Positions 10,027-44,069 of a DNA stretch of 64,000 nucleotides are shown in pieces. Below the pieces are notes generated by a model that was not told the DNA's origin, searched no databases, and worked only from the letters and a program-made list of their open reading frames with translations. Positions within the stretch are counted from its first letter, which is position 1, and the number at the start of each line of letters is the position of its first letter. A program made the position numbers and the translations under genes. Where the stretch lies: assembly GCA_963754345.1 (NCBI GenBank), contig CAVWFZ010000002.1:13392-77391 (forward strand), written 5' to 3'. The stretch is from Thermoanaerobaculaceae bacterium (GTDB lineage: Bacteria; Acidobacteriota; Thermoanaerobaculia; Thermoanaerobaculales; Thermoanaerobaculaceae).

Positions 10027-10101
10027 TGGCTGGGGCGGCAGGACTCGAACCTGCACATGCGGGATCCAAAGTCCCGTGGCTTACCATTTGCCGACGCCCC
10101 A
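10027..10101 (-). tRNA. tRNA-Gln (anticodon UUG), 75 nt including an encoded CCA
   Basis: The reverse complement reads TGGGGCG...CGGGA-CTTTGGA-TCCCG...GGTTCGAGTCC...CGCCCCAG-CCA. It has a 7-bp acceptor stem, anticodon loop CUUUGGA and discriminator G. Confidence 0.85.
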
Positions 10102-12141: not shown

Positions 12142-14071
12142 CCGTGACCTCGGCCAGCTTCTTCTCGATCCGCTCCTTCTGGCCCGCCTCCTCCGGGTCG
12201 AGGGTCAACGCCTTCGTGTACGCCTCGGCGGCCCTGGCCTTCTCGCCGCGGGCCCGGAAGAGATCGCCCACGTGCTCGTGGACGGTGGCGTCGAAGGGAT
12301 CGAGGCGCAGGCCCTCGATAAGGTGCTTCTCGGCGCGGTCGAGCTCCCCGAGGCGGAAGTACACCCAGCCCAGCGAGTCCTGGAAGGCACCCGAGGTTGG
12401 GTCCAGCTCGACGGCCTTGACGAGCATCGTGCGGGCCTCGTCGAGTTGGACTCCCTTGTCCGCGAACATGTAGCCGAGATAGTTGAGGGCAGCGGGGTTG
12501 TCGGGCTGCTTGGCGAGCAGCTTGCGGAACTGCACCACCGCCTCGTCCCACTTGCCGGAGCGTTCGAGCGCCGCGGCGTAGGCGAACAAGACCGCCGGCG
12601 GGTCGGCCAGGCGCGCCGTCGCTTCCTTCCCGCGCGAGGCTGCCTCCGCGTAGAGCTTCCGGCGGTCGAGGGCGCCCATGGCAGCCACCACGTCCTCCGG
12701 ATCCCCGGCGAACAAGCGGTCGACAGTTTGCTTGACCGCGGCCTCGTCGCCGGCGGCGATTCCGAACTCCACGAGCAACGAGTCGCGCAGGCGGACCGTC
12801 TCCTTCTCGTCCTCGATCTTGGTGTCGCGGACGAAAGCGAACCCTTCGCGGTACGACTCTCGCAGCCGGTAGTACTCACCCCAGAGGGCGAGCTGGCGCC
12901 GGTCCAGGGGCCCGTTTGAGAACTTCCGCAGCCACGTCAGCGCCGCGTCGGTCCTGTGGTCAAGAAGCTCAAGGGTCGCCCGCTCCTGGGCGATCTCGGC
13001 GGCGGCCTCCTCGCTGTCCAGCTTCTTCTCCTGAACCTGCTTCCAGAGACCGTCGAGGAGGGCCCGTGCCTCCGGGAGGCGCCGGGCGTCGATGAGCAGC
13101 CGCCCGAGGCCGAGTTCGGCATCGGGGTCACCGGGGTTGGCCGCGATGGCGCGCCGGTAGAGTTGCTCGGCCGCGTCCACATGACCGTTGCCGGCCTCGA
13201 GCATCGCTTTCAGGAGCAGCGCATCGTGCTGGTTCGGGTCGCTGGAGAGCACTTGGTCAAGGACCTCGGTGGCCCTGTCACGCTCGCCCGCACGCGCCAG
13301 CAGCGTGGCCCAGCGGGTGAGGCCGTTGAGCGTCACCCCCTCCTTCTTGAGGAACTCCCCGAGGACGTCCGCCGCTTCCTTGAACTTGCGGGCGGCGGCC
13401 AGCGTCTCCACCAGCTCGAGCGTGGCCCGCTGCCGCAGCTCGGGCACCGCCGCGGCGCGTTTGAGGTAGGTCACGGCCTCCTCGTACTTGCCCGTCTGGC
13501 GGAGCGCCTCGCCTGCGAGCACCCACAGCCTCGGGTCGTTGGGCCGCTCGTCCAGAAGGTATTGCACCTGCCCCCACGCCTGCTGTCCCCTCCCCATGCG
13601 CAACAGCGACTGTGCCAGCACCATTCGTGCCTGGCTTCCCTGCGGGAAAGCGTCCACGCCTTTCGTCAGGTGGGCGATCGCCACCTCCAGCTGGGCCGGG
13701 GTCTGGGCCGCCTGGGTCAGCAGGATGCCCAACGTGGCCTCCCCACCCATGGTCAGGTTCGGGACCTTCTGCAGTTGCTTGACCGCTTCGTCGCTCATGC
13801 CGCCGTCGGCCAGCGCCAGGCCGAACTCTTCCGCCAGCTCCAGGTTGTCGGGATCCAGCTCGCTTGCGCGGCGGAAGAGCTTCAGGCCCTCGGCGATCTC
13901 GCCGGAGGCCAGGCGGAGCTGCGCCTCCGCCACAATCGTCAGGGCTTCGACCGCGTGGTCGGACGGCACTGCCGACCGTTCCTTGGCGAGACTGGCCACG
14001 GCACCAGACAACGCCACCGCGGCCACAATAATCATTCCCAGACTTCGCCTCACCCTCACCTCCGCTGCCAT
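12125..14071 (-). CDS. Tetratricopeptide-repeat protein, secreted or membrane-anchored
   Basis: ATG at 14071 (MAAEVRVRRSLGMIIVAAVALSGAVA), then about 16 TPR-like units. The 285 codons upstream in the ORF are Arg/Gly-rich noise. Confidence 0.7.
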   Translation of the reverse strand: MAAEVRVRRSLGMIIVAAVALSGAVASLAKERSAVPSDHAVEALTIVAEAQLRLASGEIAEGLKLFRRASELDPDNLELAEEFGLALADGGMSDEAVKQLQKVPNLTMGGEATLGILLTQAAQTPAQLEVAIAHLTKGVDAFPQGSQARMVLAQSLLRMGRGQQAWGQVQYLLDERPNDPRLWVLAGEALRQTGKYEEAVTYLKRAAAVPELRQRATLELVETLAAARKFKEAADVLGEFLKKEGVTLNGLTRWATLLARAGERDRATEVLDQVLSSDPNQHDALLLKAMLEAGNGHVDAAEQLYRRAIAANPGDPDAELGLGRLLIDARRLPEARALLDGLWKQVQEKKLDSEEAAAEIAQERATLELLDHRTDAALTWLRKFSNGPLDRRQLALWGEYYRLRESYREGFAFVRDTKIEDEKETVRLRDSLLVEFGIAAGDEAAVKQTVDRLFAGDPEDVVAAMGALDRRKLYAEAASRGKEATARLADPPAVLFAYAAALERSGKWDEAVVQFRKLLAKQPDNPAALNYLGYMFADKGVQLDEARTMLVKAVELDPTSGAFQDSLGWVYFRLGELDRAEKHLIEGLRLDPFDATVHEHVGDLFRARGEKARAAEAYTKALTLDPEEAGQKERIEKKLAEVTGAPAP

Positions 14072-30644: not shown

Positions 30645-31190
30645 ATGAAACGGGCGTTTCCGGCGAAAGGTGCAACCATGATCGTTTTCCTTACGCTCGC
30701 AGGCATCGGGCTCTTCTTGCTCCTCGTGTCCGCCTTCAGCGGGCACCACATGGACTTCCACTCCGACATCGACCACGGCGGCTTCGGCTTCCTCTCCGTG
30801 CGCGCCTTCGCGGCGTTCTTCACCGCCTTCGGAACGGTGGGCGCCATCGGGCGGCACTACGGGCTGACCACCGGCTGGAGCTCGGTGTGGGGGTTGGCCT
30901 CGGGGGTGGGCCTCGTCGGCCTGTACGTCGTTTCGATGGAGCTCGTCAAGTCGCAGCAGGCCAGCTCCCTGATCGCCGAGAACGAGCTGGTCGGCCTCAC
31001 CGCCCGGGTCACGGTGGCAATACCCGCCGACGGCATCGGCGAGGTGAGCTGCATCGTCAAGGCACAGACCGCGCGCCGCATGGCGCACAGCAGATCCGGG
31101 CAACCGATCGGCGAGGGCCATATGGTTCGCGTGATCGAGCTGCAAGGGGACGTCTGTCTGGTCGAGCCGTTAACGCAGTCGCAGGCGTAG
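30645..31190 (+). CDS. NfeD-family membrane protein (flotillin partner)
   Basis: Two N-terminal TM helices and a C-terminal OB-fold-like domain (GEVSCIVKAQTARRMAHSRSGQPIGEGHMVRVIELQGDVCLVEP). Located immediately upstream of flotillin. An alternative ATG lies at 30678. Confidence 0.7.
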   Translation: MKRAFPAKGATMIVFLTLAGIGLFLLLVSAFSGHHMDFHSDIDHGGFGFLSVRAFAAFFTAFGTVGAIGRHYGLTTGWSSVWGLASGVGLVGLYVVSMELVKSQQASSLIAENELVGLTARVTVAIPADGIGEVSCIVKAQTARRMAHSRSGQPIGEGHMVRVIELQGDVCLVEPLTQSQA

Positions 31191-31214: not shown

Positions 31215-32786
31215 ATGCTCCCGTTCAGTCTTTCCCTCGTTCCGGTCCTTCTGGTCCTGGCCGCGCTGGTGGTCCTGGTCGTCTTCATGACCGCGGTGCG
31301 CAACTACATCAAGGTGCCGCCCAACAAGGTAGCGGTGTTCTTCGGGCGAAAGCACAGGACACCCGACGGGGCGACGGTCGGCTTCCGCCTGATCACCGGG
31401 GGCGCCTCGCTCAGGTGGCCGATCTTCGAGAGCGTCTCCTACCTCGACCTCAACATCTTCTCGATCGACCTGGACGTACGGGACGTGCCCAACAAGGACG
31501 GCGTGCTCGTTTCCGTTCAGGCTGTCGCCAACGTCAAGATCCGCAGCGACGAGGTGTCCCTGACCGCGGCGGCCGAGCGCTTCCTCAGCCGCAGCACCGA
31601 CGATATCAAGCAGATGGCCTACAAGAACCTCGAGGGCCACCTGCGCTCGATCGTCGGCCGCCTCACGGTCGAGGAGATCGTTCGCGACCGCGCCAAGTTC
31701 AACCAGGAGGTGCTCACCGAGGCGGCCGCCGACCTCGCCAAGATCGGGCTCGGCGTGGACGTGCTGACCATCCAGAAGGTCTCCGACGCCGAGGGCTATA
31801 TCGAGGCGCTGGGCAAGAAGCGCACCGCCGAGGTCAAGCGCGACGCCCAGATCGGTGAGGCCCTCGCCGCCCGCGAGGCCACGATTCAGTCCACCACCGC
31901 GCTGCGCGAGGGAAAGGAGACGGAGAACCAGAACCTCGCACTCGTGGCCCAGGCCGAGAAGGAGCGCGACGTTCGCAAGGCCCAGTACCAGGCCGAGGTG
32001 CAGGCGCAGCAGGCGCGCTCGCAGCAGGCCGGGCCGCTCTCCGAGGCCAAGGCCAGGCAGGAGGTGGTTGCCCAGGAGGTCCAGGTCGAGGTGATCCACA
32101 CGCTCAAGCAGACCGAGGTCGCCGAGGCCGCGGCCCTGCAGCGCGAGAAGGCCCTCCTCGCCGAGGTCGTCAAGCCCGCCGAGGCCCAGAAGGTCCAGAC
32201 CATCCTGCAGGCCGAGGCCGCCAAGCAACGCGAGATCCTCGAGGCCGAGGGCCACAGGACCGCGGTCGTCACCGTCGCCGACGCCGAGAAGCAGCGCCTT
32301 GCCCTCGAAGGCACGGGCGCCGCCGACGCCCTGCGGGCGAAGCTGCTCGCCGAGGCCGAGGGCAACAAAGCCAAGCTGCTCGCCGAGGCGGAAGGCAACA
32401 AGGCCAAGTTGCTCGCCGAGGCGGAAGGCATCAAGGCCAAGCTGCTCGCCGAGGCCGAGGGCGCCCTCAAGAAGGCGCAGGCGTTCGCGAAGATCGACGA
32501 GGGCGCCCGCACCATGCTCGTGCTCGAGCGCCTGCCCGACATGATCAAGGCGTTCGCGCCGGTGGCGGGGGCGGTGGCGGCGCCGATGGGCAACATCGAC
32601 AAGGTGATCATGATCGACGGCGGCGGCGAGGGCTCCTCGACCCTCAAGCGCTACGCCGACACCGTTCCCTCCACGATGTTCAGCGTGCTGCAGACCGCCC
32701 AGGCCCTCGGGCTCGACATCTCCGGCCTGCTGAAGAAGCTCGGGGTACAGGAGGTCAAAGAGGGCGGCGGCAAGGTGTCGGAGTAG
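31215..32786 (+). CDS. Flotillin-like SPFH/Band-7 protein
   Basis: N-terminal TM, an SPFH domain, then long Ala/Glu/Gln-rich coiled coil with KLLAEAEGNKA repeats. Typical FloT/YuaG architecture. Confidence 0.85.
   Translation: MLPFSLSLVPVLLVLAALVVLVVFMTAVRNYIKVPPNKVAVFFGRKHRTPDGATVGFRLITGGASLRWPIFESVSYLDLNIFSIDLDVRDVPNKDGVLVSVQAVANVKIRSDEVSLTAAAERFLSRSTDDIKQMAYKNLEGHLRSIVGRLTVEEIVRDRAKFNQEVLTEAAADLAKIGLGVDVLTIQKVSDAEGYIEALGKKRTAEVKRDAQIGEALAAREATIQSTTALREGKETENQNLALVAQAEKERDVRKAQYQAEVQAQQARSQQAGPLSEAKARQEVVAQEVQVEVIHTLKQTEVAEAAALQREKALLAEVVKPAEAQKVQTILQAEAAKQREILEAEGHRTAVVTVADAEKQRLALEGTGAADALRAKLLAEAEGNKAKLLAEAEGNKAKLLAEAEGIKAKLLAEAEGALKKAQAFAKIDEGARTMLVLERLPDMIKAFAPVAGAVAAPMGNIDKVIMIDGGGEGSSTLKRYADTVPSTMFSVLQTAQALGLDISGLLKKLGVQEVKEGGGKVSE
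32340..32465. repeat. About 3.8 tandem 33-bp coding repeats (KLLAEAEGNKA) inside flotillin
   Basis: Period-33 repetition of AAGCTGCTCGCCGAGGCCGAGGGCAACAAAGCC is visible directly. Confidence 0.8.
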
Positions 32787-33398: not shown

Positions 33399-34103
33399 GT
33401 GGAGGTAAACGGCAAGGCGCTATGGACGATCTCCTACGGTATGTACGTGGTCACCGCCCGCTCCGGCGGCAGGGCGAACGGACAGATCGCGAACGCCGTC
33501 TTCCAGGTCACCGCCGAACCCCCGAGGGTGGCCGTGGCGATCAACAAAGACAACTTCACCCACGGCCTGATCCGCGAAGGGGGCTGGTTCGCCTTCTCGG
33601 TGCTCGCCGAGAGCGTACCGGCGGAGATGATCGGCCTGTTCGGCTTCAAGTCGGGGCGGGACGTGGACAAGCTCGCCGAGGTCGGCTTCCGTGAGGGGCG
33701 ACACTGCCCGCTGGTGACCGATAACGCCCTCTCCGTGACCGAGGCCAGGGTCATCCAGGAGCTGGATGTGGGTTCGCACACCATGTTCGTCGGCGAAGTG
33801 GCGAGCGCGGAGTTCCTAAAAGACGGCACGCCCCTGACGTACGCGACCTACCACGCCCACAAGGGCCGTGCACCCAAGAACGCGCCCACCTACCAGCCCG
33901 AGCCTGCCCCGGCTCCGGCTGCCACGCCGGCGCCCGCCGTGGCCGCGTCCACGTGGACCTGCGGTGTGTGCGGCTACACCTACGACCCCGCGGTCGGGGA
34001 CCCGGCCAACGGCATCGCCCCGGGCACGCGGTTCGAGGACCTCCCCGACGACTGGGCCTGCCCCGCTTGCGGCGCCCCAAAGGACGCGTTCCTGGCCGAC
34101 TAA
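33399..34103 (+). CDS. Flavin reductase-like (FMN-binding split-barrel) domain fused to a C-terminal rubredoxin
   Basis: GTG start after GGAGGTG. N-terminal flavin reductase-like fold. C-terminal [12 protein letters not shown]...[15 protein letters not shown] gives the rubredoxin CxxCG...CPxCG ligands. Confidence 0.7.
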
Positions 34104-34147
34104 CTGTCGGCGCCGTTACCGAATTCGTCCGCGAAACAAGCTCCAGT

Positions 34148-34564
34148 CTACCGGCGCGCCGCTTGCTTCTGCTCGCCGGGCTTGTAGGGGCGCAGGCAAA
34201 AGGCGGACCAGGTGTCGTTCACCGAGATCAGGTTGACCCACTTCAGGTCTGCGCCGGCGAGCCCGTCCCACCCCTTGTCGCGCGTCAGGTCGGTCTGAAT
34301 CCCTGAGGTCCCCTTCGGGAACGAGATCCAGAGCAGCCCCTCGGCGCCGAGAGCCTTGACCACCCTCGGTGCGACGCTCTTCAGCTCCGCGCTCGTGCGC
34401 ACGAACGCCTGGACCCAGTCGAACGTCCCCTGCAGCTTCTCGGAGATCTCAACCCCGGCCGGCAGCGGCGCAAGCTCTTTGAGGTACCCGCCCGGCGCGC
34501 CTATCACCGCCGCGCGACTCCCCGCCTTCAGCTTCATCTTCCTCGCGAGTGCGCTTTCAGTCAT
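34148..34564 (-). CDS. DUF3052 domain protein
   Basis: MTESALARKMKLKAGSRAAVIGAPGGYLKEL matches the DUF3052 N-terminal consensus. Confidence 0.55.
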   Translation of the reverse strand: MTESALARKMKLKAGSRAAVIGAPGGYLKELAPLPAGVEISEKLQGTFDWVQAFVRTSAELKSVAPRVVKALGAEGLLWISFPKGTSGIQTDLTRDKGWDGLAGADLKWVNLISVNDTWSAFCLRPYKPGEQKQAARR

Positions 34565-34597
34565 CCCATCCCCCGTGCGTGAACGCCTGCTGCTGCG

Positions 34598-34804
34598 TCA
34601 CCTGGGCTTCTCCCCGGCGCACAGCAGCCAGATCGCCCAGGCGCAGTACGCCCCCGAAACCGGCAGTCCCACATACGACAACACGAATGGGATCGTCGTC
34701 GTTCCGACCACGATCGGCCAGTGGAAGATGAGCCTGAAGAGGTGAAGTACCGCAACGAGAAGAAAAACGGCTCCCGAAAGGATCAGGTACAGCTTCTTGG
34801 CCAT
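34598..34804 (-). CDS. Small two-TM membrane protein (hypothetical)
   Basis: 68 aa with two hydrophobic helices. Confidence 0.35.
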   Translation of the reverse strand: MAKKLYLILSGAVFLLVAVLHLFRLIFHWPIVVGTTTIPFVLSYVGLPVSGAYCAWAIWLLCAGEKPR

Positions 34805-34860
34805 ACGAACGCTCCCTTCAAACCGCCGAACGACGCGCCGGCGCCGCCCAGGGGCGAGTA

Positions 34861-34897
34861 GATCAGACGTCGCGGTAGCGGCGGAGCTGCTCGGCCA
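34861..34897. repeat. Orphan duplicate of the Lon-like gene's last 11 codons; the left member of a direct-repeat pair with 39121-39157
   Basis: ATCAGACGTCGCGGTAGCGGCGGAGCTGCTCGGCCA here versus ATCAAACCTCGCGGTAGCGGCGCAGCTGCTCGGCCA at 39121. The reverse complement encodes AEQLRRYRDV* versus AEQLRRYREV*. Similarity extends about 15 nt further upstream. Confidence 0.65.
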
Positions 34898-34943
34898 CCA
34901 CTTTCAGGCGACTTGGCCTGCCCAGGCACAGGTGGTCCCGTGA

Positions 34944-35804
34944 TCAACGCCTGAAGACGGTGTAGCCCGTCGAGGCCTGCCATTCCGAAACCGCTGAGTA
35001 GAGCCGCGTCTGGCGGAAGTACGCAAACTCGAACGCTAGACGCAGCGATTGTTCTACTCTCTCGGGCGTAACCGTTGCGGCCGAGTTAGTCCCGAGGGTC
35101 CGCCGAAGTCCAATAGCGAGAACGTTGGCGATGTCGTGGCCGCAGCAAATCTGCCACGGATCGTGATTCCATCCGACTTCCGCGCCCAACGCAGTGAGCA
35201 GGTCTCTGGTCTTCAGATCATGCCTCTGCGAGTGGTCCTTAACTTCAGCGACGAGGCGGCCTGTTTCGCAGCGGAGATACGGCCTGTCGAGGATGAACCG
35301 CGACAAGTGCAGTCCTTCAAATCTAAGCCGAAGATCGCCGCGGCGTGAGATATGCCTCAAGTGGCCTAGGGGGAGGGCGGCGAAGATGATCGCCTCGCGA
35401 TGGCTCTTTTGTGCCAGAACGGCGTGCACCTTGAGTTTCTCGACCGATCCCAACTCAGCGAGGACGCGGTCCAGCGCAGGCGACGCAACGATCATCGTTT
35501 CCAGGTCATGCGTGTCTGTGTGAAAGAGTGACGGGAGCGCGGGAATATCGTTGTCGACTACGGAAAAGTCTGCGTCGATGATGCCAAGGACACCTTCGAC
35601 ATTGGCGCGCGTGAGGATCGATAGAGCTCTGGTTAATACCTCCCGGTTGTGAGAAGGGAGCAGTACGCACTCACCCTCGACAGTGAAGGCACCCAAGCAC
35701 TTTGCGTCCGCAGGTCCCTCGACAAGGAGGATTGATCCAGCGTGAACATCGCGCAGCAAGCGCACCGTCGCCACGAGAGCGTCTGGCGAGACGCATTCGA
35801 TCAT
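34944..35804 (-). CDS. DUF4435 / OLD-family Toprim-like protein (AriB-like)
   Basis: Toprim-like Glu (LLVEGPAD) and DxD (GIIDADFS). The ATG overlaps the upstream ATPase stop as ATGA. Lower GC. Confidence 0.55.
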   Translation of the reverse strand: MIECVSPDALVATVRLLRDVHAGSILLVEGPADAKCLGAFTVEGECVLLPSHNREVLTRALSILTRANVEGVLGIIDADFSVVDNDIPALPSLFHTDTHDLETMIVASPALDRVLAELGSVEKLKVHAVLAQKSHREAIIFAALPLGHLRHISRRGDLRLRFEGLHLSRFILDRPYLRCETGRLVAEVKDHSQRHDLKTRDLLTALGAEVGWNHDPWQICCGHDIANVLAIGLRRTLGTNSAATVTPERVEQSLRLAFEFAYFRQTRLYSAVSEWQASTGYTVFRR

Positions 35805-37132
35805 GGGAGCTTTGGAGCCTCGAGCTTCGTAGTCAGATCCCAGCGGTCATTGATGATTTGCGGTGAGTGGGTGGCGATTAGAGCGTCGAACGGCGCCAAC
35901 TGGATAATGGCCGCCAGATCCTTGAGGAAACGCAACTGCCAGGCAACGTGCAGCGAGAGCTCGGGTTCGTCGATCAAGACAAGTGCGTCCCTTTGGAGCT
36001 TGAATAGCAGCTCGTATACAAGAATCAGCTCATGTTGCTCGCCGGAGGACAACGACGAGACGGGAATCGCCTCGTTCCTAGGGGTGCGAAACACGAAACC
36101 CTGCTCGCGGTCAATGCCCATCTCCTTGAAGAGAAAGTGCTGGTTGATGAGGTCCTTGAAGAGATCAATTTTTTGTGCAAGGTCCGAGTAGATCTCCAGC
36201 TTCTTCTCGACATCAGTAACCCAAAGGGATAGAACACTGGTTTCGTGATCACTAAGGTCCCCGTGGCGGACTTGGAATGCCGGTTCGGTCTGTGGATCCA
36301 GTAGGCCCGCGCCAATGAGGTGGGTCCGAGTAGTTTCGATTGATTCCATTCGAGACAGGAGTTCATCCTCGGTGAACAGCTGGCGACCGGTGACTTGGAC
36401 CAACCGCTGGGGGAAGGTGCGGTCCAACGCCTGAGATAGGGCCGCAGATTCAGCCAGCTTGCTCTTGATCGCGGACGCGAGATCTTGCGCGTATGCCTCA
36501 ACGGTGGCTGACCAAGTGGTGCGAGGTTGCTTGCGAGTGAAGGACTGCTCATCGGAAAAACGGAGTAAGCGTTGAGCTTCAATCAGACGCACGGATACCG
36601 ACTCTGTGTAGTGTGTAAGCCATTCTGGGGGCGACGATGCTTCTCGAAGAGATCTCGGCAGGGAGAGCTCGTCCGCATAGGTTCTGACCACGTCCGCCAA
36701 CTCGACGACCCGGCCTGTGCGCAAGTCTCTCCATAGCCGAGCTCCTACCCTCTCAAGATAAGGGATCTCATGCTCAATCAGGGACATCGGAAAGTGGCGC
36801 ACGAAGTCAGGGTCGAGTGGGGCATCCCTAAAGGTCTTGGGCCTGTCGCGAGGAGAGGTGAGCGTGTACTCGAGGAGGGTTATGTCTTCCTGCGGCAGTC
36901 GCTTGACCAAGAGCGATGATCGGTCAGCTAAGCCAATCTCGAGCGCTGAGAAAGGTGTTTTGCGGAGAATCTCGCGATTACGGTTGAATACGGCATCGAT
37001 TAGCCGCAGAACAGTTGTTTTGCCATAGCCATTGGGGCTGTGGATTATCGTCAGGCGCCGATCAGGATCTAGCTGTATGTCGTGGTCGAAGAGGTCAAAG
37101 AGACCCGTGACTGAGAAACGCGTGACTCTCAT
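35801..37132 (-). CDS. ABC-type ATPase of the AAA_15/AAA_21 family (AriA-like)
   Basis: Walker A SPNGYGKTT, ABC signature LSSGEQHELIL, Walker B LVLIDEPELSLH, H-loop IATHSPQI. ATG at 37132 after AGGAG. Confidence 0.65.
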   Translation of the reverse strand: MRVTRFSVTGLFDLFDHDIQLDPDRRLTIIHSPNGYGKTTVLRLIDAVFNRNREILRKTPFSALEIGLADRSSLLVKRLPQEDITLLEYTLTSPRDRPKTFRDAPLDPDFVRHFPMSLIEHEIPYLERVGARLWRDLRTGRVVELADVVRTYADELSLPRSLREASSPPEWLTHYTESVSVRLIEAQRLLRFSDEQSFTRKQPRTTWSATVEAYAQDLASAIKSKLAESAALSQALDRTFPQRLVQVTGRQLFTEDELLSRMESIETTRTHLIGAGLLDPQTEPAFQVRHGDLSDHETSVLSLWVTDVEKKLEIYSDLAQKIDLFKDLINQHFLFKEMGIDREQGFVFRTPRNEAIPVSSLSSGEQHELILVYELLFKLQRDALVLIDEPELSLHVAWQLRFLKDLAAIIQLAPFDALIATHSPQIINDRWDLTTKLEAPKLP

Positions 37133-37304
37133 GAGAGGCTCCTGTTCTGTGGCGCGGCTCTGGCAAACAGCCTAAGTCAATGCAATCGTATCCTCTTTAT
37201 AGCTGGTGCGAAAGCGCTGTCGCGCAGGGGACGCTTGGCGAACGACCGATCGGCGGTCTGCCGCTCATCTGGCTGTCCGAGCCAAAGCCAAGCTCACGGC
37301 GCCG

Positions 37305-37655
37305 CTACTCGGGCGCGAGCAGGGCCCGTGCTCTGGCCAGGATCTCCTCGACCGTCGGAGGCGGGAGCACGCAGGCGAGCGTCGCCTTGCGCGCCCGCCA
37401 GTCCAGACTCTTGATCTGGTCAGCGAGGATCACACCGCTGACGGCGAGGTCGTCAGGAATTGGCACCTCGAACGGGTACCCCTTCACCTGCGACGTCACC
37501 GGGCACGCCAGGCAGAGACCCACCTTGCGGTTATACGCCTTGGGCGTCAGCACCACGGCCGGTCGGCGACCTGCCTGCTCTCGTCCGGCCTGGGGAGTGA
37601 ACGTGAGCCAGACAACGTGGCCGCGGTCGGGCACGTAGGGCATAAGAGCTACCAA
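37305..37655 (-). CDS. mazF: MazF/PemK-family endoribonuclease toxin
   Basis: VVWLTFTPQAGREQAGRRPAVVL...ADQIKSLDW is the PemK/MazF fold signature. It overlaps the upstream antitoxin by 7 nt. Confidence 0.8.
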   Translation of the reverse strand: MVALMPYVPDRGHVVWLTFTPQAGREQAGRRPAVVLTPKAYNRKVGLCLACPVTSQVKGYPFEVPIPDDLAVSGVILADQIKSLDWRARKATLACVLPPPTVEEILARARALLAPE

Positions 37656-37891
37656 GCCTCACGGCCCTGTGGAGCGCCTGTCGAAACCTCGCCGTGCAGG
37701 TTTGTCTTGCGGACCCTCGCGAGGAGTTCCGACAGGCGAACCACTCGCCGGGAGGCCGGCGCAATGACGAGCTTCCCCTCGTGCACCGTCAGTTCCACCT
37801 GGGCATTCGGCTGCAGGCCCACCTCCGAGGCGAAAGGCTTCGGAATGCGCACCGCGAGACTGTTTCCCCATTTCTGGACCCGGGCAACCAT
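37649..37891 (-). CDS. mazE: MazE/AbrB-type (SpoVT/AbrB) antitoxin
   Basis: ATG at 37891 after GGGGAGG (MVARVQKWGNSLAVRIPKPFASEVGL). A putative promoter TTGACG-17-TATCTT lies at 37916-37944. Confidence 0.7.
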   Translation of the reverse strand: MVARVQKWGNSLAVRIPKPFASEVGLQPNAQVELTVHEGKLVIAPASRRVVRLSELLARVRKTNLHGEVSTGAPQGREAW

Positions 37892-38102
37892 GGCGCCTCC
37901 CCTGGATCGACAATGAAGATACATCGCACACCACGGCTCGTCAAGTGCGATGGCAGGGCGGGGGGTGGCACGAGCAATGGACACCCCCTCCCGGATCCCT
38001 CGCTTCGCTCGGGATGACAAACAGGAAGCGCCTTGCGGGGAGACGGACGGAACACCCGGAGGCGGGACAAGTGCGCACCGCCACCCGCTGGGCAAACCAG
38101 CG

Positions 38103-38459
38103 CTAGCTCGCCTTGGCCAGGATGACGACCTCCTTGGCGAGACGGTCGCCGAGGCGATCCTTCTCGACCTCGAGGTCGTAGCGCGCCTGGAGGTTGAGCC
38201 AGAACCGCTCCGACGTGCCGAAGTACCGCGCGAGACGCAGAGCAGTGTCGGCCGTGATCGCGCGCTTACCGTGCACCACCTCGTTGATCCGCCGGGGCGG
38301 GACGCTGGTGTCCTTGGCCACGCGGTACTGCGAGATCTCGAGCGGCTTGAGGAACTCCTCGAACAGGATCTCGCCGGGATGCACCGGCGCGAGCTTCCGC
38401 TTCCGGATCGGGGGCCCGCTCCTAGTGGTAGTCAACGATCTCGACCTCATGGGCATCAC
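38103..38459 (-). CDS. higA: HigA-family XRE helix-turn-helix antitoxin
   Basis: VHPGEILFEEFLKPLEISQYRVAKDTSVPPRRINEVVHGKRAITADTALRLARYFGTS is the HigA signature. Start uncertain (MMPMRS or MRS). Confidence 0.75.
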   Translation of the reverse strand: MMPMRSRSLTTTRSGPPIRKRKLAPVHPGEILFEEFLKPLEISQYRVAKDTSVPPRRINEVVHGKRAITADTALRLARYFGTSERFWLNLQARYDLEVEKDRLGDRLAKEVVILAKAS

Positions 38460-38709
38460 CCTCCTTCCACACGAAACAGATTCTCCACCGGTCGTTGATC
38501 CGAATGCTGTGCTGGCCCTCCCGATCGCCCGACAGCTTCTCGAGCCGGTTGCCCGGAGGAACCCTGAGGTCCTGCAGCGTCTCCGCCGCGTCGAGCATCA
38601 CCAGCCTGCGTAAGGCAACCCTCTGCAGGTCCTGAGGCAACCGCCGCGATCCGCGCCGCTGAAACACCCTTTCAGTCTCGGGGTCGCGGAAGTTCCGGAT
38701 CATCGACAA
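38422..38709 (-). CDS. higB: HigB/RelE-family toxin (plasmid-maintenance killer)
   Basis: MIRNFRDPETERVF...INDRWRICFVW...VEIVDYH. Toxin upstream of antitoxin is the HigBA order. The likely ATG is at 38703. Confidence 0.7.
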   Translation of the reverse strand: MSMIRNFRDPETERVFQRRGSRRLPQDLQRVALRRLVMLDAAETLQDLRVPPGNRLEKLSGDREGQHSIRINDRWRICFVWKEGDAHEVEIVDYH

Positions 38710-38750
38710 CCACGATAACGCGACACGTTATTATTGTCAACCGTTATGCC
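38710..38750 (-). promoter_or_regulatory. higBA promoter with a palindromic operator (ATAACG-TGTCG-CGTTAT), probably giving a leaderless transcript
   Basis: The reverse complement reads ggcataacggTTGACAataataacgtgtcgcgtTATCGTggttgtcgATG: -35 TTGACA, a 17-nt spacer, -10 TATCGT, and an inverted repeat that overlaps the spacer and -10. Confidence 0.4.
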
Positions 38751-38869
38751 TCACCCCGCGACAGACACAGCAACAAAGGGCAACCACGCGCGCACGGCGT
38801 GCGCGCCCCACGTCCGAGGAAGAGGGCACCGCATTGGTCAGGAAAGAGTTCCGTCCCGCATGTGGGGCG

Positions 38870-39115
38870 GTCATTCCCCCGAAGGCGGCGGGGACACATC
38901 GCGTGGGTGGGGAAAACACGCCCCTCGGGTGAAGCGGCGATCTCTCCGGAGGCCGCGGGGACCCAGCGCACGGATCGGCGCCGGGAGACGCGGGCGGCCG
39001 CAGGCCGAACCGCGAGGGTCACGGCGGCGAGGCGCGCCGCTGGGTCGCGGCCGAAGGAGTCTCGGGCCGCGGCGCGTCGGGACGCGCAAGGCCCAAGGCC
39101 CCGCTTCACCCGAGG
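38870..39115. repeat. Degenerate copy of the dispersed repeat family abutting the 3' end of the Lon-like gene
   Basis: GGTCATTCCCCCGAAGGCGGCGGGG matches copy C GGTGATTCCGCCCGAAGGGTGGCG. GGCGATCTCTCCGGAGGCCGCGGGG matches the core CCTATCTCTCCGGAGCC. The tail GCGCAAGGCCCAAGGCCCC...GGGGCAAATCAAAC matches the 3' modules. Confidence 0.35.
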
Positions 39116-39121
39116 GGCAAA

Positions 39122-41506
39122 TCAAACCTCGCGGTAGCGGCGCAGCTGCTCGGCCATCTCTGCCAGGCGCGCGGCGCAGCGCCCGAAGATGCTGCCCTCC
39201 GGGTAGTTCCCGTCGGCATCACGCACGCCGGCCGGCATGCCCATCAGCAGCTCGACCCCCTCCTCGATGCGCGAAACCGGGTAGATGTGGAAGCCGCCCC
39301 ACTCCACCGCCGCCGCCACCTCGGGGTCGAGCTGCAGGTCGGCGACGTTGGACTCCGGGATCAGCACCCCGTGCGTGCCCGAGAGGCCGCGCTGCGAGCA
39401 GAGGGAAAAGAACCCCTCGATCTTCTCGTTGACGCCGCCGATCGCCTGGATGCGCCCGGTCTGGTCGACCGAACCGGTCACCGCCAGGTCCTGCCGGATC
39501 GGGATCCCCGAGAGCGCCGAGAGGATCGCATACACCTCCGTGGAGGAGGCGCTGTCACCCTCGACGCCGCCGTACGACTGTTCCAGGGCGATCGACGCGG
39601 TCATCGAGAGTGGAACCTCGGACGCGAACGTGCCGCGCAGGAAGCCGGACAGGATCAGCACGCCCTTGGTGTGGATGTTGCCGGAGAGGCTCGCCTCGCG
39701 CTCGATGTTGACCACGCCCTCGCGGCCGAGTGAGACCCGTGCCGTCACGCGGCCCGGCAGGCCGAAGGCGTGGTAGCCGAGGTCGTAGACGGTGAGGCCG
39801 TTCACCTGCCCGACCACCACGCCCTCGGTCGGGATCACGAGCACGTCGTCCAGCATAAATGACGCGAGTTTCTCCTCGGGCAGGGAGTGGCGGTCGCGCC
39901 GCGCCCGCACCGCGGCGTGGATGTGCTCGGTGCCGACGATCTTCTTCCGCGTGCCGCCCGCCAGGAACGCGGCTTCGCGCAGGATGTCGGCGACGTCCGA
40001 GAACCGGGCCGAGATGCGCCTGCGGTTGCGCGCCAGCCTCACCGCCTCCTCTACCAACGCCGCCATGCCGCCGCGGTCGAGGTGGGGCAGCTTCTCGTCG
40101 CGGATGATCTTGGCCATGAGGGCGAGGAAGTCGGCCACCTGCTCGCGCCCGTTCGGCATCTCGCTGTCGAAGTCCGAGAGCACCTTGAAGATCTTGCAGA
40201 ACTCCTCGTCGGCCTCGTGCAGAAGGTCGTAGAGGGCGCGGTCCCCGATCATCATCATCTTGACGTCGAGGTCCACGGGCTCCGGCTGCAGCGCATGGCC
40301 GGACATCGCGAAGAGGATGTCGCGCGAGCGGATGACGACCCGCCGGTAGCGCAGCGCGCGCTTGAGCGCGGGCCACACGCCGGCCTCCGAGACCGCATCG
40401 AAGGCGTTGACGACCAGGAAGCCACCGTTTGCCCGCAGCAGCGACCCGGCGCGGATGCGCATGTGGTCGGAGGTGGAGTGGAAGTTTTGCGCCAGCCGGG
40501 CCTCGATGGTACCGAAGAGGTTGCCGTAGGAAGGCTCCGTCTCGATGATGATCGGGCGCCCCTTGGTGCCGCCGTTGTCCACCACGACGTTGACCCGGTA
40601 GCGTAGCAGCGGGTCGCCGTCCTCGCCGCCGTCCTGCGCGCCGAAGAGCTCCACGTGGTCCAGCATGTCCTGGCGCAGCTCGTCGAGGTAGCGGGTGACG
40701 CGGGGATCCTTGACCGCCCGCGTCACCTGGCCGAGGGACTGCTTCAGGAACGGCTCCAGCGTGTCGCGCCGAAGCTTCTCCGCGCGCGTGACCATCTCCT
40801 CCCGGATCGTCGTAACCTCGTGGAAGACCCGCTGCAGCTCCTCCGAGAGCTTGCCGTGGGCCTGCTCGATGGTGCCGGCCTTCTCGCGGTCGAACTTCCC
40901 CTCTTCGGCGAGGCTCTGGACCTTGTCGAGGGTCACCGGCCGTTCCTCGACCACCGGCAGGATCTCCGGCCGCGTGACCGAACCCACCTGCACCTGCACG
41001 AGCGTGAAACCGGCCTCCCGCACCTTGTGCTCGAAGCTCTTGATCAGCTCCTGCTGCTTTGATTTGAGGTCCTCGAGGGTCAGCTCCAGCCGCTGCTGGA
41101 ACTCCTCACCCTCGAACATGGTGGGCAGCCCCTTGGCCATGTCGCGCAGCAGCTTGTCGAGGCGTTCGCGGAGGACTGCGCCGCGCCCTGCGGCGAGGCG
41201 CAGCAGACGCGGCTGCTCGGGGCGCGCGAAGTTGTACACGAACAGCAGGTCGTCGGGAGCTTCACCCTTGTCTGCCAACGGCCGCATGTGCAGCTCGATG
41301 GCGGTCATCCGTCCGGTGCCGGTGAGACCGGTCACGAACACGTTGAAGCCGAGCGACTGCACCGAGAGGCCGAATTCGAGGGCACGCACCGCGCGCGCCT
41401 GCCCGATGATTCCCTGTGAGGGCTCGATCTTCGAGGTCGAGTCGGCCGGGAGCCATTCCTCCGGGCAATGCCACCGCAGCTCGTTTGCAGCCAGCTCTCG
41501 AGCCAC
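39122..41506 (-). CDS. Lon-like ATP-dependent protease (AAA+ ATPase plus Lon C-terminal S16 protease domain; COG1067-type)
   Basis: AAA+ Walker A VFVTGLTGTGR and a C-terminal Lon proteolytic domain (GPSAG-like Ser, Lys dyad region). The likely GTG start at 41506 after GGAGGTG avoids overlap with the MMPL gene. Confidence 0.8.
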   Translation of the reverse strand: MARELAANELRWHCPEEWLPADSTSKIEPSQGIIGQARAVRALEFGLSVQSLGFNVFVTGLTGTGRMTAIELHMRPLADKGEAPDDLLFVYNFARPEQPRLLRLAAGRGAVLRERLDKLLRDMAKGLPTMFEGEEFQQRLELTLEDLKSKQQELIKSFEHKVREAGFTLVQVQVGSVTRPEILPVVEERPVTLDKVQSLAEEGKFDREKAGTIEQAHGKLSEELQRVFHEVTTIREEMVTRAEKLRRDTLEPFLKQSLGQVTRAVKDPRVTRYLDELRQDMLDHVELFGAQDGGEDGDPLLRYRVNVVVDNGGTKGRPIIIETEPSYGNLFGTIEARLAQNFHSTSDHMRIRAGSLLRANGGFLVVNAFDAVSEAGVWPALKRALRYRRVVIRSRDILFAMSGHALQPEPVDLDVKMMMIGDRALYDLLHEADEEFCKIFKVLSDFDSEMPNGREQVADFLALMAKIIRDEKLPHLDRGGMAALVEEAVRLARNRRRISARFSDVADILREAAFLAGGTRKKIVGTEHIHAAVRARRDRHSLPEEKLASFMLDDVLVIPTEGVVVGQVNGLTVYDLGYHAFGLPGRVTARVSLGREGVVNIEREASLSGNIHTKGVLILSGFLRGTFASEVPLSMTASIALEQSYGGVEGDSASSTEVYAILSALSGIPIRQDLAVTGSVDQTGRIQAIGGVNEKIEGFFSLCSQRGLSGTHGVLIPESNVADLQLDPEVAAAVEWGGFHIYPVSRIEEGVELLMGMPAGVRDADGNYPEGSIFGRCAARLAEMAEQLRRYREV

Positions 41507-41555
41507 TCGCCACCTCCGACGTTCCGGCGCGCACCGCGGACCGCTCCACGCGATC

Positions 41556-44069
41556 TTACTCGAGCTTGCCGCTCCGGCGCACGACCAGCGGCACCAAAAC
41601 AACGGCCGTGAAACACGCAAAGGACACGCCTAGCAACGCCATCCAACCCATGCTCTGGAGGCCGGGGTAGTGGGTGGTGATCAGGGTGCCGAAGCCGATG
41701 ATCGTGGAGAGCGCGGCGAGCGTCACCGCACGCGCTGTCTGGGCGAGCGTCTCCAGGCTGGCGCCTTCGCGCACACGGTACAGGATGTAGATCGCGTAGT
41801 CGCTGCCCACCCCGATCACCATCGTGATCACGAAGACGTTGAGCAGGTTCAAGGGGTAGCCCACGACCGCCATCACCCCGAGGGCCCACAGCACGCCGGT
41901 CGCCACGGGCAGCAGGCAGACGAGGGCCGCCTTGAGGCTCTGCGAGTCCCACAGGAGGAGGCCGATCACGAGCACGAGCCCCAGCAACCCGGCGACAACG
42001 GCATCCTGCCAGACGGTGTGGCGCAGCCGCTGGGAGACGAGGTTGACGCCCGTAAGGGTCGCCTGCGGCACGCCCCGCACGAGCTCGATCAGCTGCGGCG
42101 GCGCCTCACGCCGCCACTTGCCGGGCGGCGAGAAGACGTTGACGACGGTGGTCACCCCGCCCTCGTCGTGGCGCAGCGAGCGCTGCACGACCTGCTCCAC
42201 TGGTGTCCCGCGCCAGACCTCGAGAGTGACCGGGTCCACCGGGCGGAGCGCCTCGTCGAGCGTGGCGCTCCCAGCCGCGAATGCGCCTGGCACCAGGCCG
42301 GCCGCCTGCAGCGCCGAATCGAGCTCCTTCTTCACGCGCGCCGGGTCGGTGAGCTCGCGGTGGGCCGCGAGCCAGGCGAGCGACCGCTCCTGCGAAGCAG
42401 CGGCCGGGATCAGGTTGGCGAGCGACTCGTAGGAGGAGACGACGCCCTCCTCGACCAGCTTGTCGAGGCCGACGCCGAGCTGCTGGGCCCGGGCGAGCGC
42501 GGTGGCCTCGTCAGGCGCGTTCACCAGGATCATCATGGCGTTGAACGAAAGACCGAACGCCCTGGCCACCCGCTCCTGCACGGCCACGCCCTGGTTGGAG
42601 GGGGAGCGCAGGTTGCGCACGTCATCGTCGAACCGCAGCCACGCAAGCGCGACGGCCGCCAGGACCGTCACGACCGCGGCTCCCGCCAGCACCCAGCCCG
42701 AATGGCGGTTCGCCCAGCGCAGCACCGGCCCCAGGTTCAGCCACTTCGAAGGTGGCGGGGGCGCGGCCGTGCGGTCGAAAAGCGTGACGAGCGCCGGCAG
42801 GATCAGGAACGCCGCCAGCATCATGAAGACGATGCCGGTGCCGGTGAGCAAGCCGAACTCCTGCAGGCCGACGAAGCGGGTCGCGAGAAAGGCGTAGAAC
42901 GTTCCCACCGTGGTGATCGTGCCCAGAACGACCGCCGGACCGGTGTGGACGGCCATCGCCTCCAATGCCTCGGCCTTCGCCATCCCGGCGAAGCGCCCTT
43001 CGAGGTAGCGCCCGTAGGTCACGATCGTGAAGTCGATACCGAGCCCCACCAGGAGCGCCGAGAACCCGGAGGTGGCCGAGTTGAGCGAGCCCAGGGTCAC
43101 GGCCGCAAAGATGAAGGTCAGGGCGAGGCCGGTTGCGAGGGGCAGGAAGGCGTAGTGGGCGGTCGCAAAACGGCGGTAGGCGAGGAAAAAGAGGATCAGC
43201 ACCCCGACCACGGAGGTCGCCGAGTTCCATGCGATGTCCTTCTTAATCAGCGTGGCGTCCTCGAGGGCGATACGGTGCCCACCCCCGATCTCAACACTCG
43301 GCACCTCGTCAGGCTCGATGGCCTCCTGCGCGGCAAACTGCTGCCGCACCTTGACGATGCGGGTACCAAGGTCGGACAGGAGCGCGTGGTCGAAATCGAT
43401 GTCCTGCGCAGGTCCTTTCGGCTTGGCCAGGATCAGCACCATGCTGTGGTCGGCCGAGAGGTAGTAGCCGCTCGCGAAGTCCACCTTGAGCGAGGACGGG
43501 GTGCGGCTGATCCGCGAGAGCAGCAGCGGAAGGAAGCCGAGCGGGTCCCGGATCGCGAGCTCCTTGGCGATCATGCCCTGAGGCGTGTCGAGACCGGAGC
43601 GAATGTCCGAGGCCCGCGCCGCCAGACCGGCCGGCGTGAGGCGCTCCTGGAGCGCTTCGAGCCCCTGCTGGTCGAGGAAGAGCACCGCGTGCCGCAGCAC
43701 CGTGTCGGCAAGCCGTACCGGGTCCTCGAGGTGCGCTTCCACCCGCGAGAGGTACGGGCTTCGCTGCATCTCGGCGGCGAGGGCGTCCACGAGCGCCAGC
43801 GAGGTCTCCAGGCGCTCCTCACCGTCCACCGGCACCGCGATAAGCAGGGTCTCCAGCGACCCGAAGTCCTGGAGAACGCGCCTGAATTCGCTCACGACCG
43901 GGTCGCGGCGCGGCATCAGGTTGAGGACGTCGGTCTCGAACTTGAGCCGGGTGCCGAGCACCACGCCGGAGACGATCACCACCGCGGTGCATGCGAGCAC
44001 CGCCTTGGGATAGCGGCGCCCCAGGCGGACCAGGGCCCGCGGGAGGCTGGAGGCCGCCCCGAGGCTCAC
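41556..44069 (-). CDS. MMPL/RND-superfamily transporter
   Basis: Two six-TM bundles, each followed by a large periplasmic loop (about 835 aa). The GTG start overlaps the pgsA stop as GTGA. Confidence 0.8.
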   Translation of the reverse strand: MSLGAASSLPRALVRLGRRYPKAVLACTAVVIVSGVVLGTRLKFETDVLNLMPRRDPVVSEFRRVLQDFGSLETLLIAVPVDGEERLETSLALVDALAAEMQRSPYLSRVEAHLEDPVRLADTVLRHAVLFLDQQGLEALQERLTPAGLAARASDIRSGLDTPQGMIAKELAIRDPLGFLPLLLSRISRTPSSLKVDFASGYYLSADHSMVLILAKPKGPAQDIDFDHALLSDLGTRIVKVRQQFAAQEAIEPDEVPSVEIGGGHRIALEDATLIKKDIAWNSATSVVGVLILFFLAYRRFATAHYAFLPLATGLALTFIFAAVTLGSLNSATSGFSALLVGLGIDFTIVTYGRYLEGRFAGMAKAEALEAMAVHTGPAVVLGTITTVGTFYAFLATRFVGLQEFGLLTGTGIVFMMLAAFLILPALVTLFDRTAAPPPPSKWLNLGPVLRWANRHSGWVLAGAAVVTVLAAVALAWLRFDDDVRNLRSPSNQGVAVQERVARAFGLSFNAMMILVNAPDEATALARAQQLGVGLDKLVEEGVVSSYESLANLIPAAASQERSLAWLAAHRELTDPARVKKELDSALQAAGLVPGAFAAGSATLDEALRPVDPVTLEVWRGTPVEQVVQRSLRHDEGGVTTVVNVFSPPGKWRREAPPQLIELVRGVPQATLTGVNLVSQRLRHTVWQDAVVAGLLGLVLVIGLLLWDSQSLKAALVCLLPVATGVLWALGVMAVVGYPLNLLNVFVITMVIGVGSDYAIYILYRVREGASLETLAQTARAVTLAALSTIIGFGTLITTHYPGLQSMGWMALLGVSFACFTAVVLVPLVVRRSGKLE

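Follow-up and report, generated by a model that had tools for sequence, protein, structure and literature searches.

Gene pair and expression signals

The question raised by this locus is whether two adjacent genes for an ABC ATPase and a Toprim-like protein, found in a window of 64,000 nucleotides (the whole stretch of DNA analysed) from an Acidobacteriota genome, constitute an anti-phage system of the PARIS kind, and how far such a system resembles the one known from E. coli B185. The AriA-like ABC ATPase gene (35801..37132, minus strand, 443 aa) and the AriB-like DUF4435/Toprim gene (34944..35804, minus strand, 286 aa, encoding a predicted nuclease) are open reading frames exactly where a preliminary description of this DNA had placed them. 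The ATGA by which the two genes had been said to be coupled is indeed found at 35801..35804, where the junction on the minus strand, read directly, is ...CTCCCATGATCGAATGC...; as a feature of the sequence, this stop/start overlap suggests translational coupling. An AGGAG ribosome-binding site is located at 37139-37143, 6 nt 5' of the ATPase ATG. A sigma-70 scan upstream of the ATPase gene on the cassette strand gave no consensus promoter, and we infer that a promoter lies within the leader (37133..37255, minus strand), which moves with the cassette according to the blastn edge and the GC profile.

The AriA-like ATPase

The translated ATPase contains all of the motifs previously ascribed to it, each of them intact, namely Walker A (SPNGYGKTT, K38), the ABC signature (LSSGEQ, 361-366; S363), Walker B (LVLIDEPE, D388/E389) and the H-loop (ATHSP, H422), as well as a Q-loop at Q187. 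The two halves of the head are predicted to be separated by a four-helix bundle (helices 205-246, 255-274, 295-313 and 316-332), which corresponds to the AriA fold, i.e. a Rad50/SMC-like head in which a short four-helix bundle takes the place of a long coiled coil. In the detection rule set by Rousset et al. 2022 (PMC9122126), PARIS is recognised by an ATPase with at least 32 bits for AAA_15 or at least 27 bits for AAA_21, next to a DUF4435 (PF14491) protein with at least 27 bits. The HMM search that had been suggested as a check gave 57.8 bits (1.9e-15) for AAA_15 and 48.4 bits for AAA_21, both above the thresholds of the rule. The PADLOC AriA model matched at 6.5e-25. Judged from sequence, the matches to AAA_15, to PADLOC AriA and to PADLOC AriB (see below) are far beyond chance.

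Many PADLOC PtuA models also match the ATPase (1e-19 to 1e-11), and PtuA is its top NCBIfam match, although far below the cut-off; neither protein of the pair scores above NCBIfam cut-offs. The true affiliation of the ATPase might therefore be with a different family of defence ABC ATPases (Septu PtuA, retron-associated, AbiL, split OLD/Gabija), its likeness to PARIS being superficial, but we consider this hardly credible. The PtuA matches are confined to the shared C-terminal motifs and score below AriA. Septu requires an HNH protein (PtuB) beside PtuA, and retron-associated PtuA a reverse transcriptase (RT) and an ncRNA; Pfam detected no HNH or RT domain in the pair, and Rfam gave no match in the island. 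The OLD family (classes 1 and 2; 6P74, 6NK8) and Gabija GajA (8U7I) likewise defend against phages through the joint action of an ABC ATPase and a two-metal Toprim nuclease, and as a group their structures rank second among the structural matches of each protein. In OLD and GajA, however, the ATPase and Toprim domains are on one polypeptide, accompanied in Gabija by the GajB helicase, whereas they are separate here. The earlier interpretation of separate polypeptides in the order ATPase, nuclease as PARIS is supported.

The AriB-like Toprim protein

The Toprim-like glutamate and DxD motif noted in the preliminary description are both present in the 286-residue protein, in VEGPAD (E29, D33) and IDADF (D77, D79). 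Together with E102 (and H99) these residues form the predicted two-metal site; the five acidic residues are invariant across 42 homologues, and they occur in the same order as the catalytic residues E26, D30, D88, E90 and E122 of E. coli AriB, in which the mutations E26A and E90A abolish defence (PMC11464382, PMC10802264). The predicted fold is that of AriB, with an N-terminal Toprim domain and a C-terminal DUF4435 helical domain, the latter carrying an invariant CGH motif (G222/H223).

The assignment to DUF4435 is borderline by Pfam (26.5 bits, E 6.7e-6, residues 54-138 only), i.e. 0.5 bit short of the cut-off of 27, but clear by the PADLOC AriB model (50.1 bits, E 9.4e-14, nearly full length), so that this part of the earlier expectation holds with one model and narrowly fails with the other. 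PADLOC AriB is the sole PADLOC match of the protein. PF14491 is present in nearly all of 120 listed relatives; for the closest relative, the precomputed match is labelled 'weak'. Comparisons with solved AriB gave no sequence link. A phmmer search of the protein against the PDB did not match it, nor did a profile of the 42 sequences, which had marginal Toprim matches only (1t6t, E 0.12; RNase M5, E 0.48), above the usual significance threshold. With an E. coli-type AriB sequence obtained via the IMG/VR loci L088/L089 and PDB alignment, hhalign of the two families gave a non-significant probability of 3.5%.

We do not hold this against membership, because a DUF4435 protein with 91 bits (compared with 26.5 bits here), from the P2-like E. 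coli phage vB_EcoM-813R9, does not match the PDB AriB either. The phage locus has the same layout, with an AAA_21/AAA_15 ATPase of 419 aa followed by an overlapping DUF4435 gene of 283 aa, and its DUF4435 protein has the VEGPxD, DADF and H-x-x-E motifs in common with the AriB-like protein; hhalign against the AriB-like family gave 68% probability over about 100 residues. The phage pair lies in a hotspot between tail genes, whereas the present cassette is chromosomal. A minimal Toprim core with E-G-x-x-D and D-x-D is also found in RNase M5 and small Toprim proteins (6TG6, 1T6T, 2FCJ), and a likeness between the active sites of AriB and RNase M5 has been noted (PMC12409363). Unlike the AriB-like protein, these are single-domain housekeeping proteins of about 115 aa (M5 acts in rRNA maturation) without an ATPase partner.

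Comparison with PARIS of E. coli B185

The E. coli B185 system, known from structures 8UX9 and 8V45-8V49, is encoded on a P4-like satellite, in contrast to the chromosomal location in Acidobacteriota. Both systems consist of two co-oriented genes, an ABC ATPase followed by a DUF4435/Toprim protein, of similar size (AriA 443 versus 464 aa; AriB 286 versus about 310 aa). [quoted passage not shown] Sequence identity is merely 18% for AriA and 12-13% for AriB. The comparison of predicted structures with AriA and AriB, also proposed beforehand, recovered the same folds, albeit with a Foldseek TM-score of only about 0.5 for AriB.

In E. coli, an AriA hexamer sequesters up to three AriB monomers, of which the first helices dock on the ATPase head dimer, and the system is triggered by the phage anti-restriction protein Ocr, possibly also by Arn or others (PMC11464382, PMC10802264, PMC12409363). 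AriA binds the acidic Ocr through arginines (PMC10802264). AriB nicks the tRNAs Lys-UUU, Thr-UGU and Asn-GUU, with K60/K64 holding the anticodon loop (PMC11464382, PMC10802264, PMC12409363). In an alignment that is unreliable outside the motifs, the AriA-docking residues R28 and R31 correspond to P31 and A34 in the AriB-like protein, the tRNA-holding residues K60, K64 and R236 to V56, A60 and C221, and the dimer residues F137 and E285 are not conserved. The segment bearing K60/K64 is shorter in the AriB-like protein. It follows from the replaced arginines that any interface with AriA would have to use different residues. K60, K64 and R236 reflect the specificity of the E. coli protein and not the PARIS family as such.

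OLD-family and Gabija nucleases cut DNA. A system of the same architecture with a different effector chemistry, PARIS-like in regulation only and with DNA or some RNA besides tRNA as the substrate of the Toprim protein, is conceivable, though we regard it as unlikely. Within a PARIS-family reading, the trigger phage protein and the RNA target of this variant may differ from those of E. coli. The helical domain of the ATPase (205-332) is net acidic (12 K/R versus 20 D/E); with such a composition, an acidic DNA mimic like Ocr is not the ligand one would expect, which hints, though no more than that, at a different trigger.

Relatives and distribution

The ATPase and Toprim genes are adjacent and on the same strand in all 65 related loci, with an estimated 4-base overlap in 42 of them. 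An annotated Acidobacteria locus (L001-L003) has an identical layout with the same 4-base overlap. At E<=1e-30 the clade comprises 1,709 representatives of clusters formed at 50% identity, and this divergent PARIS branch occurs commonly among Cyanobacteria and Acidobacteria. No confirmed locus of the cyanobacterial/acidobacterial clade emerged from a scan of viral contigs, and a search of phage records with E. coli B185 AriA retrieved nothing closer than relatives at about 35% identity. Among the neighbours of 21 long homologous loci, analysed with crude ORF calling, no recurrent partner or defence-island signature was found. TPR and Uma2, the families seen most often, accounted for 4 and 3 of 128 proteins, and PADLOC matched two generic kinases; with such low counts there is no recurrent third gene.

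The inserted block and its toxin-antitoxin genes

The cassette lies downstream of a LonB/LonC-like protease gene (39122-41620, minus strand, 832 aa; Pfam AAA_32, LonB_AAA-LID, Lon_C and LonC_helical). An imperfect direct repeat of 49 nt marks the inserted block. Its right copy (39121..39169), at the proximal border, is the functional 3' end of the Lon-like gene, encoding the C-terminus RLAEMAEQLRRYREV*, and its left copy (34862..34910), at the distal border, is a displaced duplicate of this end, of which the minus strand reads RLKVVAEQLRRYRDV*. The copies are 86% identical, with a local score of 63 compared to 21.9 +/- 2.6 (maximum 31) for shuffles. No integrase, tRNA target or RNA element was found in the block; the one tRNA present lies at 10027-10101, with no further Rfam matches.

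The 4.26-kb block contains, besides the pair, two toxin-antitoxin pairs on the minus strand: MazF (37305-37643; PemK_toxin 9.9e-25) with MazE (37649-37891, about 80 aa from ATG; MazE_antitoxin 9.5e-13), and a HigB toxin (38422-38709; HigB-like_toxin 3.5e-20) with an HTH antitoxin (38103-38459; HTH_3 2.4e-8). Promoter-like sites precede MazE/MazF (37944-37916) and HigB/HTH (38740-38712, matching 10 of 12 positions). The preliminary description had placed both pairs with the cassette in a low-GC insertion; they do adjoin it, but the low-GC tract (GC 0.57, GC3 0.65-0.68) spans the cassette only, at about 34950-37255, with GC climbing abruptly to 0.71 at about 37200. The toxin-antitoxin genes (GC 0.66, GC3 0.82-0.84) are much nearer to the window mean of 0.68.

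The vicinity of two classical type II toxin-antitoxin pairs within one block could also point to a mainly selfish addiction module stabilising the block, with the AriA-like protein as antitoxin and the AriB-like protein as toxin, rather than to a phage sensor system. This is very unlikely in our view. In E. coli, deletion of either gene is not toxic and defence is lost, an observation read as ruling out a classical toxin-antitoxin system (PMC9122126), and an ATP-hydrolysing sensor scaffold of 443 aa is far too elaborate for an antitoxin. Toxin-antitoxin genes do not recur beside the pair across the 21 long loci. In the nearest related cassette (L085/L086) the pair is at the same site with no toxin-antitoxin genes, neither MazE/MazF nor HigB/HTH, and its blastn similarity to the window begins at 37255 and covers 37255-34950 at 78% identity. 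MazE/MazF and HigB/HTH are therefore co-resident cargo of the block, outside the PARIS-like system. The nearest genome (L005) has a single repeat copy and lacks the block altogether. In L085 the duplicate of the Lon-like gene end was sought and is absent, so both loci are not explained by one simple integration history.

Proposed mechanism

We conclude that the locus is very likely an intact two-gene PARIS-family cassette (ariA-ariB) of a very divergent branch, acquired horizontally and situated in a variable spot just downstream of a Lon-like gene. Whereas its family, fold, catalytic residues and obligate pairing emerge from the data above, the mechanism proposed here is modelled on that of E. 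coli B185 (PMC11464382, PMC10802264, PMC12409363). The AriA-like protein would build a scaffold through its ATPase heads and short four-helix bundle, bind AriB-like monomers and hold them inactive. Binding of a phage-made protein to the AriA-like protein, in an ATP-dependent manner, would release the AriB-like protein, which would dimerise and nick host tRNA with its two-metal Toprim site (E29, D33, D77, D79, E102), so that translation stops and the infection is aborted. The tight ATGA coupling would help co-production of the nuclease and its keeper.

More tentatively, the branch may have kept the sequestration architecture and catalytic core while exchanging the docking, dimer and tRNA residues and acquiring an acidic domain, so that the phage proteins it senses may belong to a class other than acidic DNA mimics and the RNA it cuts may be another one; it would spread as a bare 2.3-kb chromosomal cassette and not on phage satellites. 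Another trigger class and RNA target are possible because the E. coli contact residues are replaced and the helical domain is acidic instead of basic.

Significance

The locus is an unremarkable representative of a system type that is widespread and already known, and brings no new principle, since PARIS has a published description and solved structures and is covered by defence-system finders. It does represent a large, very divergent AriB branch at the edge of detection: as this copy is 0.5 bit under the Pfam cut-off of the original PARIS rule, rule-based surveys can miss such copies. It also shows cleanly how a small hotspot in the chromosome, downstream of a Lon-like gene, takes three states among related Acidobacteriota. 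Finally, the family-wide features of AriB (five acidic residues, H-x-x-E, G-H and the two-domain fold) can be separated from its E. coli-specific residues for docking, dimerisation and tRNA holding, a distinction which could guide work on the evolution of trigger and target specificity.

Family assignment of the gene pair

The AriA-like ATPase gene (443 aa; 35801-37132, minus strand) and the AriB-like gene (286 aa; 34944-35804, minus strand) were identified as open reading frames at exactly the positions proposed in the preliminary description. The ATGA overlap claimed there is borne out by the junction (...CTCCCATGATCGAATGC...), where the stop of the ATPase gene and the start of the second gene share these four bases; the ATPase ATG is preceded, at a distance of 6 nt, by an AGGAG ribosome-binding site. 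All motifs quoted previously are present in the translations, i.e. SPNGYGKTT (K38), LSSGEQ (361-366), LVLIDEPE (D388/E389) and ATHSP (H422) in the 443-aa protein, and VEGPAD (E29, D33) and IDADF (D77, D79) in the 286-aa protein.

The ATPase matches both Pfam families suggested for it, AAA_15 (57.8 bits) and AAA_21 (48.4 bits). Its top PADLOC model is AriA (6.5e-25), the ATPase of the two-gene anti-phage system PARIS, and E. coli AriA ranks first for it among the sequences of the whole PDB (7e-14). The ATPase and E. coli AriA are close in length (443 and 464 aa) and in register at both ends (19-92 with 20-93, and 319-432 with 319-434). Many PtuA models of PADLOC also match, ranking below AriA and covering only the common C-terminal motifs; that the pair belongs to another ABC-ATPase defence family is extremely improbable.

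For the 286-aa protein, the proposed DUF4435/AriB assignment was recovered with PADLOC, in which AriB is the sole match (50.1 bits, E 9.4e-14, profile positions 3-222 of 236), and fell just short in Pfam, where DUF4435 scores 26.5 bits over residues 54-138 only, 0.5 bit under the 27-bit gathering score. The original PARIS detection rule demands at least 32 bits for AAA_15 or at least 27 bits for AAA_21, plus at least 27 bits for DUF4435 (PMC9122126), and the present copy is therefore narrowly missed by it with the Pfam release used. Neither protein exceeded the cut-offs in a search of NCBIfam. In the PDB, solved AriB was reached neither by a single-sequence search with the 286-aa protein nor by a 42-sequence profile of its family, which gave only marginal Toprim matches (1t6t, 0.12; RNase M5, 0.48). 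Since a 91-bit DUF4435 protein of a P2-like coliphage hotspot is likewise without a match to PDB AriB, this failure is a trait of DUF4435 and not of the 286-aa protein.

Predicted folds

AlphaFold2, supplied with the family alignment, modelled the 286-aa protein at very high confidence (pLDDT 94.9, pTM 0.89). A Foldseek search against the PDB returned two significant matches only, both of them AriB chains (8ux9_A, 5.2e-5; 8v46_D, 8.2e-5; probability 1.00, full-length, TM about 0.5, 13% identity), followed by small Toprim proteins at E of about 0.2. In the ATPase model (pLDDT 82), four long predicted helices (205-246, 255-274, 295-313 and 316-332) separate the two halves of the head, which fits the 'short four-helix bundle' that sets AriA apart from Rad50 and SMC (PMC10802264). 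The suggested structural comparison thus leads to AriB for one protein and to an AriA-like bundle for the other; of the two results that would have refuted the PARIS reading, a failure of the 286-aa protein to match DUF4435/Toprim models and a grouping of the ATPase with SMC/RecF-type proteins, neither was obtained. The pair very probably belongs to the PARIS family.

Catalytic and specificity residues

For E. coli B185 AriB, residues 5-303 were taken from the alignment of an IMG/VR relative against the PDB, and the numbering was verified by E26, R28, D30 and R31 in LVEGRHDRS. Experiment and structure have identified E26, D30, D88, E90 and E122 as metal-binding residues (PMC11464382), and defence is abolished by E26A and E90A (PMC11464382; PMC10802264). 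Mapping by hhalign, which aligns the T-x-x-H-x-x-E motif only, and by an independent MAFFT alignment places these residues at E29, D33, D77, D79 and E102 in the 286-aa protein, with their order kept, and H119 at H99. All six, together with G222/H223 (the counterpart of the E. coli 'RGH'), are invariant in 42 family members, as are the ATPase motif residues in 36 homologues. The catalytic and ATPase motifs are thus intact.

At 13% identity the AriB alignment is unreliable away from the motifs, and with this limit several E. coli residues appear not to be conserved: those for AriA docking (E. coli R28, R31; here P31, A34), tRNA holding (K60, K64, R236; here V56, A60, C221) and dimerisation (F137, E285; here E117, L256). 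Relative to E. coli AriB, the stretch from the first acidic pair to the DxD motif is reduced by 14 residues. It is unlikely that the pair combines the same regulation with an effector that cuts DNA or other RNA.

Pairing and distribution

Tight pairing of the two genes is obligate in this family. Among 80 metagenomic loci collected with the family profile, 65 had enough upstream sequence, and in every one of these an AriA-like gene on the same strand ends a few bases from the DUF4435 start, with an estimated 4-base overlap in 42. The same layout occurs in an annotated Acidobacteria MAG, where an AAA_15/AAA_21 gene of 441 aa and a DUF4435 gene of 285 aa share a 4-base overlap, surrounded by unrelated lipid-metabolism genes. 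A crude census of neighbours (128 ORFs flanking the pair in 21 long loci) revealed no recurrent family; the commonest were TPR (4) and Uma2 (3), and PADLOC matched two generic kinases. With clustering at 50% identity, the family counts 1,709 representatives at E<=1e-30, a number that rises to 4,617 when the threshold is relaxed to E<=1e-3. Each of the top 150 is a stand-alone protein, with lengths of about 230-330 aa, and the named members are chiefly from Cyanobacteria and Acidobacteria. No member was confirmed in a scan of viral contigs.

An unannotated PARIS-type pair was found in the P2-like Escherichia phage vB_EcoM-813R9 (ON470620.1, 8786-10889), between baseplate gpV and tail gpS/gpR. 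It consists of a 419-aa AAA_21/AAA_15 ATPase and a 283-aa DUF4435 protein (91 bits), labelled 'putative enzyme with ATPase activity' and 'hypothetical protein' in the record.

The inserted block and its variable site

Two toxin-antitoxin pairs, MazE/MazF and HigB with an HTH antitoxin, lie upstream of the ATPase/DUF4435 genes (Pfam, 1e-13 to 1e-25 across both). The 'low-GC insertion' with two toxin-antitoxin pairs that had been described is therefore correct as to its neighbours and narrowed as to its composition: the ATPase/DUF4435 pair has GC 0.57 and GC3 0.65-0.68, versus GC3 0.82-0.84 for the toxin genes and 0.92 for the Lon-like gene, and is the only compositionally foreign part. The GC step coincides with the extent of nucleotide similarity (34950-37255) to L085, one of two metagenomic contigs (L085, L086) whose copies resemble the pair most closely (protein identity 86% and 71%, nucleotide identity 78%). 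The pair has been acquired horizontally; that it is mainly a selfish addiction module is quite improbable.

A 49-nt imperfect direct repeat (34862-34910 and 39121-39169; 86% identity; score 63 versus 21.9 +/- 2.6, maximum 31, for shuffles) brackets a 4.26-kb block in which about 400 nt of GC-rich non-coding DNA accompany the PARIS-like pair, MazEF and HigBA. Of the two copies, the right one is the genuine 3' end of the gene for the Lon-like protein (…RLAEMAEQLRRYREV-stop), and the left one, directly after the AriB-like stop, reads RLKVVAEQLRRYRDV-stop. Neither an integrase nor a tRNA target nor an Rfam element was found within the block. The sole tRNA gene and sole Rfam match of the 64-kb window, a tRNA-Gln (anticodon TTG; 10027-10101, minus strand), is distant from the island and not its insertion target.

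Comparison with related Acidobacteriota reveals three states of the site downstream of the Lon-like gene, an 832-aa LonB/LonC-type protease. The nearest genome, an Acidobacteriota MAG (80% protein identity in this gene; other matches at most 44%; region compared, 12374-13266), is collinear on both flanks and has one Lon-like gene end, 0.88 kb of other sequence with a small cupin-like ORF, and nothing of the block. In L085/L086 (L085 1-3700), the pair is the only cargo of the block; it comes almost immediately after the Lon-like 3' end and precedes the same 68-aa gene as in the window. A 107-aa ORF is also present; MazEF, HigBA and the duplicated gene end are all absent. The window (34560-39170) carries HigBA, MazEF and the pair.

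The GC-rich (0.72-0.79) non-coding DNA at 38710-39120, which borders the stop codon of the Lon-like gene on its downstream side, had no match in Rfam. Within it, two 18-nt arms (38920-38937 and 39101-39118, 163 nt apart) form a perfect inverted repeat. The mechanical 148-aa ORF containing MazE (37649-38095) is probably over-extended; an ATG at 37891 gives an 80-aa MazE, with a promoter-like site at 37944-37916, and 5 nt separate the MazE stop from the MazF start. A further contig (ENA ERZ25039515 contig_76555), 98.4% identical to 34090-38051, has indels that fuse MazE with MazF and break up the ATPase gene; it probably stems from the same organism and from an assembly of error-prone reads.

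Outside the block, an SPFH/flotillin gene (31215-32786, plus strand), just downstream of an NfeD-like gene (about 30675-31190), has four tandem copies of the 11-residue AKLLAEAEGNK in its coiled-coil part (32337-32468). A 234-aa protein (33399-34103, plus strand) joins a flavin reductase domain (Flavin_Reduct, 1.6e-33) to a C-terminal rubredoxin domain (2.8e-23).

Proposed mode of action

PARIS is an already known system, reported in 5.2% of prokaryotic genomes (PMC9122126), structurally solved and covered by PADLOC, and the locus is a divergent copy of it; the PARIS reading made from the sequence was right. By analogy with the E. coli model (PMC11464382, PMC10802264, PMC12409363), an AriA hexamer, formed through head-head and helical-bundle interfaces, would keep at most three AriB monomers inactive. 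ATP-dependent binding of a phage protein to AriA (Ocr in E. coli) would release AriB, which would dimerise into a two-metal Toprim ribonuclease that nicks particular tRNAs, so that translation is arrested and the infection aborted. Transfer of this mechanism as a whole appears likely, and overall confidence in the explanation is high. Because the helical domain of the ATPase is net acidic (12 K/R versus 20 D/E) and the residues that hold tRNA in E. coli AriB are missing here, it is plausible that the pair would respond to another class of trigger and act on another RNA target than E. coli PARIS.
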